Positions 41,145 to 47,729 of a stretch of DNA of 64,000 nt are shown here, piece after piece (positions within the stretch are counted from its first letter, which is position 1; every line of letters begins with the position of its first letter). The notes beneath the pieces were generated by a model. The model was not told the DNA's origin. It was given only the letters and a program-made list of their open reading frames with translations, and ran no database searches. This DNA is from Candidatus Nanosyncoccus sp. (GTDB lineage Bacteria > Patescibacteriota > Saccharimonadia > Saccharimonadales > Saccharimonadaceae): assembly GCA_045604885.1 (NCBI GenBank), contig JAZUOY010000015.1:1424-65423 (forward strand). The letters are read 5' to 3'. A program made the translations under genes and the position numbers.

Positions 41145-41876
41145 ATGGAACGCTTTTCTAGAGAAAAATACGAAGATTTTTTAAAAAAGATAGATTTAGC
41201 GAAATATCGAGAGAAGTATGCTAAGGTGAAGACTGTGGAGATGGATTTGCCATACGAAATTCAGGCTTTGCCAACAATTTATGCTGAGTACTGGGATAAC
41301 GTGAACCATAGAGAGGAACCACTTTCCTATGAGGAATATTACAAGTTATATTGGAATTCTTGTAAAGATGAGATTATGGCATTTCGTAAGAAAACTGGTT
41401 TTGGCGAAGATTGTGATTGTTATGAACGTGGCTTAGAAGCAAGAATCTATCGCACCTGGGCATCTTTAATTACTCAGATTCAGGGTGGATACGTAGCTGA
41501 GGAGGTTTTTGGCAAGGGAAGCGTCAGAATGAGCCCTGAGCTTGATCGTAAGAAAATTGATATTATGATCGTTAATAAGGATGGCAGTGAGCGTTTGCGG
41601 ATTCAAGTCAAAAAAGTTACTCATCGTCCAGAAATTGCCAGGATGCATAAGAATGTGAGAAATGAAAATGGTTCCGTAGATTTGTATTATGTAGTACCAT
41701 CTCCGCGTAATTATGAGCATCCGACCTATCTCATTAATGGTCGTAATCACAAAAGAGGCGAATTACGTCCATTTACGAAAGATTTCGTGAAATGGAATCC
41801 GGCGACCGCAACTATGGATAGACTAGATAATGGATTTATCATTTTCACAAAGAATGCTTTTTTGGGACTAGAATAA
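41145..41876 (+). CDS. TaqI-family type II restriction endonuclease
   Basis: KY..VKTVEMDLP, GLEARIYRT..S..TQ and PELD...ID...IQVKK match my recollection of TaqI-family motifs. Confidence 0.8.
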   Translation: MERFSREKYEDFLKKIDLAKYREKYAKVKTVEMDLPYEIQALPTIYAEYWDNVNHREEPLSYEEYYKLYWNSCKDEIMAFRKKTGFGEDCDCYERGLEARIYRTWASLITQIQGGYVAEEVFGKGSVRMSPELDRKKIDIMIVNKDGSERLRIQVKKVTHRPEIARMHKNVRNENGSVDLYYVVPSPRNYEHPTYLINGRNHKRGELRPFTKDFVKWNPATATMDRLDNGFIIFTKNAFLGLE

Positions 41877-43062
41877 TTTGGTAGTCGGGGCTTAGCCCCT
41901 TTTGCGTTAAAAAGGATCGTAGGCGATAGTCTAGAATTTGGTCAATGCTCGGTTTGATGCCCAGCTCCTGACATTTTTTGTAAGCAGTAGATTTTCGTGA
42001 GACAATCTCTGGGATTTGGACAAGGATATATTTATTATTGCGTCCATCTTCCAGGTTGGTCTCGTAAACTGCTTGACCAGTTGATCCAGACCCAGCAAAA
42101 AAATCTAAAATGATAGAGTTAGAAGTATTAGTCATGCGAATAAAATATTTTAGCATTTCTACTGGCTTCGGAGTATCAAAAATCCCTTGTAATCCTAATC
42201 TTTTGAGGTCATGTGTGCCTTGCCGTGAATAAAAATTAAGAATTGATGGAACATTATCTTCACTTTCTGTAAGGTATTTGATGGCGTAAGGGCGACCGTT
42301 TTTGAAATTGAGGCGATGTTTTTTCGCAAGTTCTATAAAATGTTCATCGGTAGCCCACCCTCTTGTCGGTAAAGGACTGAGGTGAAGATTGATAGACGGA
42401 ATATCGACTGCTCGGGGGGTACTAGGAGTAGAAAGATCTACGGCGAAAAAAATCCTACCCTTGTTATCTAACTGTGAATAATTTCTCAGCCACGTGATGT
42501 TTTGCTCATGACAGATAGACTTGATTCGTTTCGTAAGAGTTTTTTCTGCAGCGGATCTGCCTTGTTGCTTGAAAATAGTTTTAATTTCATTTTGAAGATC
42601 ATTGATCATTTGTTTTTGCTCCGGAATATCCGTGCGATGTACTATAAATTTCCGAATATTCTTCCTGTTTTTTGCATAACAGAGGACATATTCATGAACG
42701 GTGTTAATTAATTTGGAGTTACTACGCTGAGCTTGTTTGGTGATAAAGGTGCCAATAAAATTTTCGCTTCCAAAAACGCCATCACAGCAGATTCTCAGAT
42801 GAGGAAATTCGTTATCGTCTATAGAAATTAAAATCACCGCATCATCCGCCATGAGTCTTCGAGCTGCCTCTAAACGTGCGTGTATAAAAGCGACCCAATC
42901 ATTGCTGGTATTCTTATCTTTGTAGCTTTTCTGGGTCTGAGTATTATATGGTGGGTCGATGTAGATTAAGTGAATTGCATTCTGGTATTTCGTTAAAAAA
43001 TCAGAATCTTGCATTACATCAAGATTGTCTCCAATATAGACTTCATGATTAAGCGATTTCAT
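41845..43062 (-). CDS. Beta-class (Mod-like) amino DNA methyltransferase; probable start 43062
   Basis: IYIDPPYN precedes TPKP and LDFFAGSGSTG; convergent with and overlapping the REase. Confidence 0.92.
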   Translation of the reverse strand: MKSLNHEVYIGDNLDVMQDSDFLTKYQNAIHLIYIDPPYNTQTQKSYKDKNTSNDWVAFIHARLEAARRLMADDAVILISIDDNEFPHLRICCDGVFGSENFIGTFITKQAQRSNSKLINTVHEYVLCYAKNRKNIRKFIVHRTDIPEQKQMINDLQNEIKTIFKQQGRSAAEKTLTKRIKSICHEQNITWLRNYSQLDNKGRIFFAVDLSTPSTPRAVDIPSINLHLSPLPTRGWATDEHFIELAKKHRLNFKNGRPYAIKYLTESEDNVPSILNFYSRQGTHDLKRLGLQGIFDTPKPVEMLKYFIRMTNTSNSIILDFFAGSGSTGQAVYETNLEDGRNNKYILVQIPEIVSRKSTAYKKCQELGIKPSIDQILDYRLRSFLTQKGLSPDYQIILVPKKHSL

Positions 43063-43102
43063 TAAGGTCATTATAACAAAAAAGGTCTATTGCGACCAAT
43101 TT

Positions 43103-43187
43103 TGGTAGCCGAGACGGGACTTGAACCCGTATGAATTTCTTCATTCGATTTTAAGTCGAACGCGTATACCAATTCCGCCACTCGGCC
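43103..43187 (-). tRNA. tRNA-Leu (TAA)
   Basis: Anticodon arm TTCGA-CTTAAAA-TCGAA, long variable arm, CCA end. Confidence 0.96.
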
Positions 43188-43440
43188 AATTTTGCTTGGA
43201 GGACTATTCAACCCAAATGTTGAACCATCCCTTATTATTTTATCAGAATATCTTTGTAGTGACAAGTCGGCGGAGTTAATGGAATATACTCCTCTCTCTA
43301 GAATAGAGGTGGAAAGGGCTAGGGCGATGGAGGATTATGTCTTATAACGTACCAACTAAAACCTAATTAAACCATTTGTTACCTAGCATAGTTCTCCCAC
43401 GTCTCTCTCAAGCGCCCGAAGGGCGCTGTATTGGTTAGCC

Positions 43441-43579
43441 TGGTGAAATCGGGCGCTCATCAAACCCGTTTGTTTGGAATGATAGTGTATATCTAATACT
43501 GGAGATTACTTTGGTTGGAGTGCGGTCCTCTTCACAGGCAGGTATTGTCTTTTTAATGGTGAAATCGGGCGCTCATCAA
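43441..43579 (+). repeat. 23-bp direct repeat tggtgaaatcgggcgctcatcaa (43441-43463 / 43557-43579)
   Basis: Exact match at 116-bp period; weaker similarity continues for about 25 bp. Confidence 0.93.
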
Positions 43580-43844
43580 GCCCTTCCTGTTTAGATATAT
43601 GAGTATACCCTACCTAGGGACTCCCAGGCTACCCCGTTTAGGACGAAATACGTGCCTTATTTGCTAGCATCTTTGGTGATTTCGTCTGGTAGTATCACTC
43701 GTGTAGTTTCTTTGGATTTATTTTACTAACAGATTAGTTCATATGATAGCAGGGTTTTCCCGCCCGGCCTGCTTTTAATTAAAACACTCTACCGCTAGCA
43801 TTGTTTCTCTGATGTTTTTTCTTGGTGGCTGTTGATGCTAGTGC

Positions 43845-43873
43845 TTGCCATGATTAAAATTATCTGGTATAAT
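43845..43873 (+). promoter_or_regulatory. Sigma70-type promoter
   Basis: TTGCCA-17 bp-TATAAT with a TGn extension. Confidence 0.8.
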
Positions 43874-43881
43874 CATGGCAT

Positions 43882-44003
43882 CATCCAATTCCCACATTTA
43901 CAACTCAAACGGTAACCCAGAGACCTACATAGCGTCCAGAAAGGATGTCACGTAGGTACATAGGGCACTATGCTCTAGGTTACCGAAAAGTGGGAGTTGG
44001 ATG
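43882..44003 (+). ncRNA. Candidate structured RNA / leader (multibranch)
   Basis: Nested stems 43882-43895/43990-44003, 43910-43922/43973-43985, 43923-43928/43952-43957, 43959-43963/43968-43972. Confidence 0.6.
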
Positions 44004-44053
44004 CTAACACCTCGTGGCATCCTTTTTGTGGATGTTGCAGAAAGAAGGATACT

Positions 44054-44887
44054 ATGCAAGACCACAGCGATAATCAACAACCCCAGCCTTACCGAGTCAG
44101 AGTTGGCTGTTTCGTGACACTTAGAAACAATGATGATAATCGCGTCACTAAGTATAAAGTAGTAAGGTCGCTATACTCGTCAAATAATGCGTGGGCGGAA
44201 ACAAGCATTAAGGAGACTCCTACTTCTGGGAGTCTTTCTGTAAGTTCCCCACTTGGAGCTAGTCTGATTGGAAAAAAAGCTGGTGACATTGTTGGCAAAT
44301 ACAAAGTCATGCTAATAGAAGGTGGCGACCATGTAGTGCAAAATATTCAAGACTCGTATGAGCAGGATACCGCTGATAAAGCTAATAAGCTAAAAATGCT
44401 ATTGGAAAAGATACGGTCTGGAGAATGGGTCAAAGCATACGTTACGCGCATTCATCACGTCTGCATCCCAGTCAAAACTCGTCGCGCCAACATTAAGACC
44501 TCATTCCTTCCTGACGGTGTTATGGAGTCTATCGTTATATCGAACATGGCAGCCGAGGCAACAAATCTCTATAGGATAGATTTGTTTCTCTATCTCGACG
44601 ATGACCATGAAATTGGTGCCATGGCGGAAATGCTAATTGAGCGAGACACAGTGAGTGTTCTATGTAGCGACGTTCATAATCCATTGCCAAAAAATTGCTT
44701 AAACGAGAATTATGATTATGTCGTTGCTGATGAACAATCCTCTGAAGAGGGGATGGAATTAGTTCATGGTTTAGAAGTAAAATTATCGCCTGAAGACAGT
44801 AGCTTCACATGTAGGACCGCGCCTCACTCGACAACTAATCACCACTACATGAGAATAGTCCACGAGGACAGTTGTGAGTGTTATTAG
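44054..44887 (+). CDS. Protein with an N-terminal GreA/GreB C-terminal-like domain plus an unknown domain; probable start 44054
   Basis: VRVGCFVTL...LSVSSPLGASLIGKKAGDIV; aagga RBS before ATG 44054. Confidence 0.7.
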   Translation: MQDHSDNQQPQPYRVRVGCFVTLRNNDDNRVTKYKVVRSLYSSNNAWAETSIKETPTSGSLSVSSPLGASLIGKKAGDIVGKYKVMLIEGGDHVVQNIQDSYEQDTADKANKLKMLLEKIRSGEWVKAYVTRIHHVCIPVKTRRANIKTSFLPDGVMESIVISNMAAEATNLYRIDLFLYLDDDHEIGAMAEMLIERDTVSVLCSDVHNPLPKNCLNENYDYVVADEQSSEEGMELVHGLEVKLSPEDSSFTCRTAPHSTTNHHYMRIVHEDSCECY

Positions 44888-45467
44888 TGTTTTTGGAAAA
44901 ACGGAATACGCAAGTAGTAGCACGATTGGCGTCGCTATGTTTTTCGGTATACTTGCAACAGTTTTTTTATTTTTCCTAGCTAGCTCTAAAAACCACAACA
45001 AAACGACTAGAAATAGAAAGCACAACACCTTTGTGTATCGACCTCGCTCGATCAATGATGTACAGGAGCACCAGAGAATTAGACGCTGGGAGATAAAGCG
45101 CGCTGCTTTTGAGGAACAAAAGAAAACACCATTCTTCAAAGACTGGAAGCGCGAGCAATATCAGTGTCAATATGGTAAGTGTGCTTGGTGTAGGAAGTCG
45201 ATAGACCTTCATTCGCCCGATACCCAAGTCGATCATATTAAGCCATTGATGTGGTGGGGGACTAATGAGTACGATAACTTGGTTCTAGCTTGTAAAGAAT
45301 GTAATGAGGAAAAAGGCGATAGTCAATTTGGCTGGGCTGGTGCTAAAGGCATGCCTGGCGAGAATAGAAAACCAGCCTGGATTAGGCCTAATAGATGCTG
45401 TAGAAATTTCAAAGAGCAGAACTCTCAGACAGTATCATATACTACTCTGAACTCAGACAAGCCTTAG
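44874..45467 (+). CDS. Membrane-anchored HNH endonuclease
   Basis: N-terminal TM helix; CAWC...VDHIKP...GTNEYDNLVLACKECNEEKG. Confidence 0.88.
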   Translation: MSVISVFGKTEYASSSTIGVAMFFGILATVFLFFLASSKNHNKTTRNRKHNTFVYRPRSINDVQEHQRIRRWEIKRAAFEEQKKTPFFKDWKREQYQCQYGKCAWCRKSIDLHSPDTQVDHIKPLMWWGTNEYDNLVLACKECNEEKGDSQFGWAGAKGMPGENRKPAWIRPNRCCRNFKEQNSQTVSYTTLNSDKP

Positions 45468-45569
45468 AGAGCCTCTTATGGCCTCACAGAGGGTGTTTTG
45501 ACGGGGTGTTTTTGAGGTTGTCTTTCTCTTCGGAGGCTTTAGCCGACGAAAGCGCGTTAGCGCTTGCCC

Positions 45570-45598
45570 TTGCCTTAGTGTTTTAGACTTGATACAAT
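45570..45598 (+). promoter_or_regulatory. Sigma70-type promoter with no downstream ORF
   Basis: TTGCCT-17 bp-TACAAT with a TGn extension. Confidence 0.72.
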
Positions 45599-45604
45599 GA
45601 AGTC

Positions 45605-45990
45605 CTACACAACGGTATCAGGTAAGGAACGCTGGTACTGTGCTAGCTGAAATAATGCTAGGAGGAAACGCACCTTCCCGTGGTGGGCTGGCTAATGATT
45701 TCCTCGGATAGGTTGCCCATTGCTAAAACAGCCTTGATGGTAGCAGTAATGCCTGGACTAGTAGGCATGAAGTATCATCTGCCACACTATTGTAGCAAAA
45801 GGCGGACAATGGTTTTAGCGAATAATCCGATTCCAAGCCTGACGAAAGCAGGTTGCCGATGGACCTTCTAGCTGCCTTGGCACTAGGTCTGTAGGCAGAG
45901 GGATTATTTGCTATGCCAAAAAAAGCTAGCATAAATACAGGCGAGCAACATGAAGCTGGGAGAAACCTCGGCAAGCTGGTGACCTACCTT
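45605..45990 (+). ncRNA. Candidate large structured ncRNA (~385 nt)
   Basis: About ten stems, many with G-U pairs, downstream of a clean promoter; no credible ORF. Confidence 0.55.
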
Positions 45991-46108
45991 AAGTCTATAG
46001 AAGAGAAAAATATAACGCGATTCAAGGGTGATTCTTCCAGTAGTATGGTTGAGCCTGTTAGCGGCATCACAATTCTCTTTTAGAAGTGTTTCTGGTATAA
46101 TGATGGTA

Positions 46109-47677
46109 ATGTCATTGCTGCCAGGAGAGATAGATAAGACCAAGCTACGTTACATTGTTTACGTGCGCAAATCTACTGATGAGAAGGGAAAGCAGGAGAG
46201 GTCTGTTGAGGACCAAATCGCTGATTGCCTAGACTTAGCCAAACGTAGAGGGTTAAATATTATTGGTGAGCCTATTGTTGAAAAGCGTTCTGCTAAGGTT
46301 GATGGAGGCAGACCACTTTTTGCTAAAATGATTAAATTAATTCGTGACGGTAAGGCTGATGGCATTATTTCCTGGCATCCGGATCGTTTGTCTCGTAATC
46401 CGATTGATGCGGCCACGATTGTAGACATGCTGGACAAGAACATAATCAAAGACCTTGCCTTCCCTACTTGTGAGTTTTCAAACGACTCCAGCGGCAAGAT
46501 GCTACTCAATATATTATTCGCTATCTCAAAGCAATATTCGGAGCATATCAGCGAGGGTGTTACTCGTGGGCTTCGTAGAGGTCTTCAAGAAGGAAAATCT
46601 CAAGGTCGTTACGTCTGGGGTTATACCCGTAGCAAAGAAACTGGACTATATGAGCCAAGTGAATATTTTGAGATTGTCCAAGAAGCATGGGAGATGAAGG
46701 TGAACGGTGCTACGGATGCCGCAATTCTAAAGTTCTTAAAGAAAAATAATCTACGGAGAGCGGTCGAATCAAATCCTGGAAGATTTATAGAGCCTGTCAA
46801 GGAAACCCCAAAGAACATCTTCAAGAACCCAATTTACTATGGTGTTTTGGAGCAGGCAGGACAAGAAGTGGACCTAATTGAAGTTACTGGTGGCGCTTTT
46901 CAGCCTATGATTACTTATGAAACCTTTGCCAAAGTACAAGCTATGGAACGTAGCGGCAAATCGCATGGTGGGCGCAAGAAATCTGGTGGTATTTTCTACC
47001 CACTAAAGCACATGGTAACTTGTGGCGTCTGCAACCAAACTATGGTCGTCTATAAAAGCCGTAGCGGCCATGGGAAACGTGCTAACTACTTGTATTTTGA
47101 GTGTAGGAATAAAGATTGCACTCGTAGTCCCAAGGCTATAAGAGCAAGGGAAATATTTGAGCCGCTATTTGAAGCTGTCCGCCAGTTGCAGTTTACTGAG
47201 GAAGAAATAGAGAAATACAACCAAGAGATTGATAGCTTTAGCGAAGAGAGAATTGTTGAGCTACGTCAGGAAAAGAATAGTATAACTGCCGCTATTGCCC
47301 ACAAGAACAAAGAACTTGAGAAACTGTCTCTTAGCACACCCAATTTGACTAGTAGAGCATTAACTCTAATACGAAAGAGGATTGATTCGCTGTCCAATGA
47401 ACTAGATGAACTTGAGGAGAGCTCTAAATCTATTGATGCTCAAATAAAATCAGCTCAGCGAAGTAAGGTTTCTACTGAGCAAGTGTTGAACCTCCTAAAA
47501 ACGCTTCCTGACAAGATGGAGAATGGCTCCGCCGCTGAAAAAGATGCGATTGCCCGATTATTGTTATTGAACCTCACTATTGACGCACAAAAAAGGCCTC
47601 ATTTCCTCTGGAAAGAGCCTTTTGCTAGTCTGCTTGAATCCCGAAAAGGTGATTCTGGAGGCGCCTACCGGAATTGA
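46109..47677 (+). CDS. Large serine recombinase (resolvase, recombinase, zinc ribbon and coiled-coil domains); probable start 46109
   Basis: YVRKST catalytic motif, DRLSR, CGVC...C...C zinc ribbon, coiled coil; own TG-TATAAT at 46096-46101; last codons are antisense to tRNA-Cys. Confidence 0.93.
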   Translation: MSLLPGEIDKTKLRYIVYVRKSTDEKGKQERSVEDQIADCLDLAKRRGLNIIGEPIVEKRSAKVDGGRPLFAKMIKLIRDGKADGIISWHPDRLSRNPIDAATIVDMLDKNIIKDLAFPTCEFSNDSSGKMLLNILFAISKQYSEHISEGVTRGLRRGLQEGKSQGRYVWGYTRSKETGLYEPSEYFEIVQEAWEMKVNGATDAAILKFLKKNNLRRAVESNPGRFIEPVKETPKNIFKNPIYYGVLEQAGQEVDLIEVTGGAFQPMITYETFAKVQAMERSGKSHGGRKKSGGIFYPLKHMVTCGVCNQTMVVYKSRSGHGKRANYLYFECRNKDCTRSPKAIRAREIFEPLFEAVRQLQFTEEEIEKYNQEIDSFSEERIVELRQEKNSITAAIAHKNKELEKLSLSTPNLTSRALTLIRKRIDSLSNELDELEESSKSIDAQIKSAQRSKVSTEQVLNLLKTLPDKMENGSAAEKDAIARLLLLNLTIDAQKRPHFLWKEPFASLLESRKGDSGGAYRN

Positions 47678-47729
47678 ACCGGTGTAAAAGGTTTTGCAGA
47701 CCTCTGCGTAACCACTCCGCCAAAGCGCC
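47656..47729 (-). tRNA. tRNA-Cys (GCA)
   Basis: GGCGCTT...AGAGG-TCTGCAAA-ACCTTT...AGGCGCC-TCCA. Confidence 0.95.

Follow-up and report, generated by a model that had tools for sequence, protein, structure and literature searches.

Organization of the locus

The window analyzed here, a 64,000-nt stretch of contig JAZUOY010000015.1 (positions 1,424 to 65,423 of the forward strand) from a Candidatus Nanosyncoccus sp. in the Saccharibacteria, carries an integrative element in which a promoter, a strongly folded RNA segment (hereafter, the leader RNA) and two cargo open reading frames (ORFs), ORF1 and ORF2, follow one another on the plus strand. A preliminary description of the interval 43845-44053 had reported a TTGCCA-17-TATAAT promoter followed by a 122-nt multibranched fold, and had read the latter as an antitoxin-like RNA or a riboswitch-like regulator of unknown class. 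All of its structural claims are reproduced with RNAfold, and the folded RNA structure is confirmed. The promoter (43845-43873, plus strand) is of the sigma-70 type, TTGCCA-17-(TG)gTATAAT, with 11 of 12 consensus matches and a TG extension. Its -10 box (TCTGGTATAATnATGG) also precedes the recombinase gene of the element (46091) and a tRNA-Gly gene (47796), and hence represents the organism's own strong promoter type. Transcription is predicted to start at approximately 43879-43881, 1-3 nt 5' of the first helix of the leader RNA, and the fold begins 8 nt 3' of the -10 box.

ORF1 (44054-44887, plus strand) encodes a protein of 277 amino acids, the N-terminal part of which resembles the C-terminal domain of GreA, Gfh1 and Rnk (Pfam PF01272, E-value 3e-8); the protein also matches Gfh1 weakly, and its remainder shows no recognized similarity. 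Its AlphaFold model is poor (predicted local distance difference test, pLDDT, of 59). The family is very rare, with five relatives among 1.8 billion representatives. No relative was found in 400 genomes of the class or 400 of the phylum (800 Patescibacteria), where the matches correspond to housekeeping GreA, or in phages and plasmids, and searches of genome, viral and Joint Genome Institute (JGI) metagenome contigs returned generic GreA domains only. At the single homologue with a readable upstream region (locus L007, 27% identity) the leader is short and unstructured and there is no HNH neighbor, so that the leader RNA and its structure are not conserved upstream of this ORF. ORF2 (44874-45467, plus strand; 197 amino acids) overlaps ORF1 by 14 nt and combines an N-terminal hydrophobic, transmembrane helix with an HNH nuclease domain. 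Its HNH homologues elsewhere stand alone, without ORF1 or the leader RNA, and on these comparisons the ORF1-HNH pair is not conserved. In agreement with the preliminary description, Pfam and PADLOC recognize no reverse transcriptase and no known toxin family in the island next to the RNA.

Structure of the leader RNA

The core of the leader RNA spans 122 nt (43882-44003, plus strand) and adopts a P1-loop-P2-three-way junction architecture of shape [[][]], with a minimum free energy (MFE) of -58.5 to -59 kcal/mol. The closing helix, P1, pairs 43882-43895 with 43990-44003 over 14 bp that include one U-G pair. It is separated from P2 by an asymmetric internal loop, the 5' strand of which contains a 10-nt A/C-rich bulge (43900-43909) and the 3' strand of which reads CGAAAA. 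P2 (43910-43922 with 43973-43985) consists of 8 and 4 bp around one C-A mismatch, and opens into two arms: P3 (43923-43957), built from acctac/gtaggt and capped by gcgtcc-agaaa-ggatgt, and P4 (43959-43972), a catag-ggca-ctatg hairpin carrying AUAGGGCAC at its apex. The junction is tight, with a single unpaired nucleotide, and P1 and P2 together contribute 26 bp (14 and 12, respectively).

The segment 43877-44005 (129 nt) folds at -59.0 kcal/mol, compared with -27.9 ± 3.5 kcal/mol in dinucleotide shuffles (z = -9.0), and none of 200 shuffles matches the native stability. A longer stretch of 191 nt yields z = -6.9, and the minus strand folds more weakly (z = -5.1). Furthermore, pairing on the plus strand involves three G-U pairs and one C-A mismatch, and on the minus strand the reverse; this asymmetry, together with the weaker minus-strand fold, favors an RNA transcribed from the plus strand. 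When placed in register and corrected for GC content, the leader fold is exceeded in stability by few, if any, plus-strand 130-nt windows of the 0.69-Mb genome, ranking roughly within the top five to ten. The other top-ranking windows are mostly multi-copy long-hairpin repeats, while the leader fold is single-copy and branched.

The leader RNA has no family match in Rfam 15 at the gathering score or at E-values up to 10, with only tRNAs and noise being returned. No copy was detected with blastn beyond the locus in its own genome or in 60 relatives, with a single-sequence covariance model in 27 related recombinase loci or 150 genomes of the same family, or in phages, plasmids and viral contigs. 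A second copy of the element, found in another metagenome (locus L126), is 98.6% identical. The two copies differ by 19 substitutions within the 600-nt left arm and by five across the remaining 1.7 kb, and 43794-44382 is free of changes; this invariant segment fits a constraint on the promoter and the RNA.

A terminator-like hairpin and a potentially masked Shine-Dalgarno sequence in the linker

The ribosome-binding site of ORF1 had been described as lying just outside the fold, yet P1 and the Shine-Dalgarno (SD) sequence are separated by 40 nt that hold a terminator-like hairpin, a U5 tract and a hairpin directed against the SD. The terminator-like hairpin (43999-44027, plus strand) pairs GGAUGCUA with UGGCAUCC in 8 bp around an 8-nt loop, and is followed by the U5 tract (leader tail, UCCUUUUU). 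With a stability of -10.2 to -11.4 kcal/mol, it is stronger than in 99% of shuffled linkers (z = -3.0). Its 5' arm begins with the five nucleotides, GGAUG, that end the 3' arm of P1. These can either close the foot of P1 with the 5'-terminal CAUCC, a pairing worth approximately -11.7 kcal/mol, or pair with the downstream GCAUCC (44017-44022) to form the terminator hairpin ahead of U5. The GGATG/CATCC words involved occur five times in 153 nt, as opposed to once per 561 nt across the window.

A second hairpin (44013-44056, plus strand) pairs CAUCCUUUUU (44018-44027) with the SD (gaagga, 44044-44049) and CGU with the AUG start codon (44054-44056). At -13.5 kcal/mol it is the MFE state, and competes with a GGCAUCC/GGAUGUU hairpin (GCAUCCUUUUU with GGAUGUU) that extends to approximately 44039 and reaches -10.8 kcal/mol. 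The SD has an unpaired probability of 0.12, compared with 0.43 in shuffled linkers.

The ATG of ORF1 lies just 26 nt past the U tract, leaving no room for a second promoter, so that ORF1 can be transcribed solely through the leader RNA and the leader RNA constitutes the 5' untranslated region (UTR) of the ORF1 mRNA. A TTG codon at 43997 was considered as an alternative start for ORF1 and ruled out, as the alignment with homologues begins at the ATG (44054). A minus-strand ORF (43925-44080; 51 amino acids with a hydrophobic N-terminus) that lies antisense to the leader RNA and the start of ORF1 was likewise considered as a type I toxin; it begins with TTG, no promoter was found for it, and it was taken as a chance occurrence.

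A family of leaders in Saccharibacteria mobile elements

A sister element in the same genome, located on contig C17, also has an extended -10 promoter followed by a folded leader (G000:C17:28454-28613, minus strand; L075 8558-8717), and this leader recurs in three other genomes. A model derived from these four leaders identified members in ten genomes of the class, out of 151 searched, and at two of the 27 related recombinase loci. The family alignment (A6) comprises 17 members in 18 aligned rows, and some of them reside in elements with recombinases related to the one described here (the sister element, L075, and loci L059 and L084). The closing helix of the family, which opens with 5'-GUCU, is paired in 96.7% of instances with 44 double changes, a level reached by none of 500 shuffles, although fitting of the alignment to the model favors such an outcome; slid controls pair in just 30-54%. 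The first three pairs of the helix are G-C, U-A and C-G in 17-18 of the 18 rows. The 3' arm ends in AGAC, and its GAC also opens a GACACC/GGUGUC terminator hairpin that is followed by CCUUUUU. None of the 13 family loci tested yields an Rfam match, LOOT included, and a literature search found no paper describing the family. The leader family is absent from Rfam 15. Terminator/antiterminator leaders as a kind are already known, and attenuators in general have been surveyed (PMC2965389). One of its members adjoins a DUF3800-IX RNA (RF02968, 53.7 bits; L157 1350-1412, minus strand).

The leader RNA resembles this family in its layout. The -10-like hexamer ends 6-7 nt 5' of the helix in most of the 17 members and 8 nt before it in the leader RNA. 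P1 extends over 14 bp here and, with a single exception, over 7-17 bp in the family, with cores of typically 100-140 nt in the family and 122 nt in the leader RNA. Both share shape [[][]], which is seen in about half of the family (8 of 17 members). The 3' strand of the internal loop reads GGAAAA(A)C in the family and CGAAAA in the leader RNA, and the apex of the 3' hairpin carries GGGCAYC in the family members of this shape (UAUAGGGCACC in two members) and AUAGGGCAC in the leader RNA. P1 and the terminator overlap in both cases, by three nucleotides (GAC) in the family and by five (GGAUG) here. The terminators are of comparable strength, typically -9 to -13 kcal/mol and approximately -11 kcal/mol, respectively. 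They end in (C)CUUUUU in the family and in UCCUUUUU in the leader RNA, and the start codon, preceded by its SD, lies approximately 20-50 nt after the U tail in the family and 26 nt past the U tract here. Lastly, both head the cargo genes of tRNA-integrating serine-recombinase elements.

The sequences conserved in the family are, however, not those of the leader RNA. The invariant GUCU...AGACACC...GGUGUCC series is absent from 43882-44031, where CAUCC...GGAUGC...GCAUCC is found instead, and the apical GGGCAC of the leader RNA has no complement in its own terminator. When run unfiltered on the island, the family model (R3) places its best match on the leader RNA, at full length and on the plus strand (43883-44031), with just 11.5 bits (E-value 0.056). 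Conversely, seven of the ten best matches of a model of the leader RNA itself (R1) in 14 loci fall on family leaders in the right strand. From the shared layout, we take the leader RNA to be a sequence-divergent version of the family design, using the words CAUCC/GGAUG/CAUCC in place of GUC/GAC/GUC. The preliminary assignment to an unknown class thus holds as regards Rfam, but not as regards layout, which matches that of a recurrent leader family. The leader RNA might even be truly homologous to the family and very divergent, its three switch words (at the 5' end, in the 3' arm of the terminator and at the foot of the closing helix) having changed together as a three-way covariation, a proposition that we regard as doubtful.

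Proposed function of the leader RNA

The leader RNA can be interpreted as a cis-acting 5' leader of the ORF1-HNH cargo operon that would operate as a transcription attenuator and as a translational gate, a reading to which we assign a probability of roughly 0.58. We favor it because of the promoter-to-gene anatomy, the presence of mutually exclusive helices that are nearly iso-energetic and the parallel with a covarying leader family. In this model, transcription would start 1-3 nt before P1 and could reach ORF1 solely through the leader RNA. Being the first to form during transcription, P1 would make read-through the default outcome. If the foot of P1 were held open, the terminator hairpin would form instead, releasing an RNA of approximately 145 nt. 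With P1 closed, the freed CAUCCUUUUU segment could pair with the SD and AUG of ORF1, and translation would be damped. The 5'-terminal stem might in addition protect the mRNA from decay that depends on its 5' end, in the manner of 5' stem-loop mRNA stabilizers such as the ompA leader.

Several observations weigh against this interpretation. The leader RNA is a sequence singleton and its second copy is identical, which yields no covariation, and the leader transcript is a prediction from the sequence. The stability of P1 would confine any switch to its lowest 5 bp, and no factor that opens P1 was identified. Occlusion of the SD is merely marginally unusual, as 5% of shuffled linkers show an equally low accessibility. 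The parallel with the family is also open to challenge at the sequence level: over the whole window, the match of the family model to the leader RNA (11.5 bits, E-value 0.79) comes second to a spurious 12.3-bit match, overlapping a coding start and not unusually folded, and hence lies at noise level; nhmmer finds nothing between the family and the leader RNA; and the reciprocal matches may reflect no more than each RNA being the most structured stretch of its locus, as a model built on so structured an RNA prefers any strongly folded stretch. Similarly, the absence of substitutions in 43794-44382 could mark a recombination boundary rather than selection.

The proposed leader shares features with several known regulatory systems. 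In ON-type riboswitches and antiterminator leaders, a promoter-proximal three-way junction is likewise closed by a helix that is mutually exclusive with an intrinsic terminator, as exemplified among ON-type riboswitches by the pbuE adenine riboswitch. The leader RNA differs from riboswitches of this type in lacking an evident ligand pocket and a match to a family with a known ligand, in its far longer helices and in its non-metabolic cargo. Structured RNAs directly 5' of effector genes are also found in a mobile or defense context in type III toxin-antitoxin RNAs (ToxI) and in retrons (msr/msd), but the leader locus has no tandem or direct repeats (43845-44053), no endoribonuclease toxin and no reverse transcriptase. 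A third parallel is provided by put of phage HK022, a cis-acting antitermination RNA of a mobile element that is, like the leader RNA, a promoter-proximal folded RNA located upstream of a terminator. A put-like action of the leader RNA on RNA polymerase is, at this point, pure conjecture.

The Saccharibacteria are ultrasmall epibionts in which almost no gene regulation has been studied. A recurrent promoter-to-terminator leader gating the swappable cargo of small tRNA-integrating elements would offer a handle on the control of acquired and possibly toxic genes, such as the membrane-anchored HNH nuclease considered here. The leader RNA and the family display the same geometry with different interacting words, which, if they are homologous, would help to tell a functional switch apart from a hairpin that is simply stable. 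Should the leader RNA be a true homologue, the three-way covariation would constitute direct evolutionary evidence that competition between helix and terminator is the selected function, and a protein of the element could be envisaged to toggle the switch, as for instance ORF1 through its RNA polymerase-binding, GreA-type domain.

Alternative explanations

The leader RNA could instead be a constitutive element without a switch, in which the 5' stem-loop stabilizes the mRNA and a leaky terminator fixes the level of expression. In agreement with this proposal, the predicted transcript opens with P1, which forms before the 3' arm of the terminator is made and has a slightly higher stability. Such an element would nevertheless leave unexplained the repeated CAUCC/GGAUG words, which make three mutually exclusive helices, as well as the preservation of the same overlap in the covarying family, and we deem this alternative rather unlikely.

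A free-standing, trans-acting small RNA of approximately 145 nt, running from about 43880 to the U tract at 44027, is also an unlikely explanation. Such an RNA might serve the HNH protein or ORF1 as an antitoxin or immunity RNA, or regulate the recombinase, and it would account for the combination of an own promoter, a terminator-like end and a very stable, compact fold next to a nuclease gene, on an element whose relatives carry defense-type cargo. The locus, however, offers neither the tandem repeats nor the known toxin, reverse transcriptase or endoribonuclease partner of such systems. The best duplexes between its unpaired segments and other transcripts of the island fall within the range of shuffles, the HNH homologues live without the RNA, and ORF1 can be transcribed through the RNA only. 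The lack of repeats, of a recognizable partner and of significant complementarity to other island transcripts, combined with a cargo pair that is not conserved, leaves the antitoxin-like RNA put forward initially unsupported.

It is quite improbable that the fold reflects a selfish or DNA-level structure, either as a single-copy palindromic insertion akin to a miniature inverted-repeat transposable element (MITE) or a palindrome-associated transposable element (PATE), or as a DNA hairpin of the element. The source genome does harbor three multi-copy families of long hairpins of similar size (110-130 nt). The leader fold, in contrast, is branched and single-copy, was not found in approximately 210 related genomes and shows no target-site duplication; moreover, its G-U asymmetry favors the plus strand and it sits in exact register with the transcription start site and the terminator.

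A true riboswitch, in which a small molecule bound at the three-way junction would shift the competition of P1 with the terminator, would reproduce the ON-type topology in which the 3' strand of P1 serves as the 5' strand of the terminator, but it is very improbable given a junction with a single unpaired nucleotide, 26 bp in P1 and P2 that are too stable for ligand dependence, the absence of Rfam matches at E-values up to 10 and downstream genes that are neither metabolic nor related to transport. The riboswitch-like regulator proposed in the preliminary description finds support as an architecture, with a closing helix opposed to a terminator in the 5' UTR of ORF1, but not as a ligand-binding aptamer.

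Other candidates were discarded. A leader regulated by, or titrating, CsrA was suggested by the GGAUG repeats, but this 98%-complete genome lacks CsrA (PF02599), which was found in control genomes. LOOT (RF03000) has no match in the island (E-values up to 10), the whole genome (E-values up to 1) or the 13 family loci. A hammerhead or other ribozyme is at odds with the lack of an unpaired junction core and of an Rfam match. A TAGCGT in the P3 loop recalls ssoA-type origins, but there is no Rep gene and the 6-mer match is at chance level; and an attC-like site misfits the R'/R'' consensus, the recombinase being of the serine type.

The integrative element and its genomic context

The element hosting the leader RNA spans 4,459 bp (43197-47655) and lies in the 3' end of a tRNA-Cys gene, with a TGGAGG core at each end. 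It is flanked by tRNA-Leu (43103-43187) and tRNA-Cys (47656-47729), which are adjacent, as an empty site, in four congeners (G015, G019, G022 and G030), identifying 43197-47655 as an insertion. From left to right, the element consists of an ORF-free arm of 650 nt, the promoter and leader RNA, ORF1, ORF2, a second folded leader with an ORF of 56 amino acids and a large serine recombinase gene (46028/46103-47677) that ends antisense inside tRNA-Cys. The left arm (43203-43845) contains a 27-nt direct repeat, TGGTGAAATCGGGCGCTCATCAA(A/G)CCC, at 43441 and 43557, and is approximately tenfold more diverged between the two copies of the element than the remainder. The second copy (L126) displays 76 extra nucleotides (177-252) between tRNA-Leu and the end of the element, with a second TGGAGGCGCC core, which are perhaps the scar of another insertion.

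Recombinases with 39-44% identity to that of the element are encoded in approximately 25 of the Saccharibacteria genomes searched, and two further ones are present in the source genome. As in the element described here, the recombinase end is marked by a tRNA gene in 19 of 21 related loci scanned (L058-L079). The tRNAs at such loci are those for Leu, Lys, Ala/Ile, Pro, Val, Asn, Gln and Ser, and these arrangements suggest that serine-recombinase elements directed at tRNA genes form a family in the Saccharibacteria. The sister element on contig C17 (L075 3023-8490, minus strand) carries an Eco57I-type methylase (523 amino acids), a T5orf172-domain protein (845 amino acids) and two unknown proteins, which makes defense-type cargo plausible for this class of elements. 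Just outside the element, by tRNA-Leu, positions 41145-43071 encode a restriction enzyme of the TaqI family together with its N6/N4 methylase.

The three multi-copy families of long hairpins in the source genome consist of near-perfect repeats of 110-130 nt, none of which matches Rfam. The first comprises C9:9676-9805, C9:35023-35152, C19:5594-5719 and C6:87-216 (family A); the second, C20:6107-6236 and C18:4253-4382 (family B); and the third, C20:14019-14148, C10:78584-78713, C2:2-131, C11:20252-20380 and C11:9877-9974 (family C). Many of these hairpins are located at contig ends; they resemble repeats of the MITE type and seem to interrupt the assembly.

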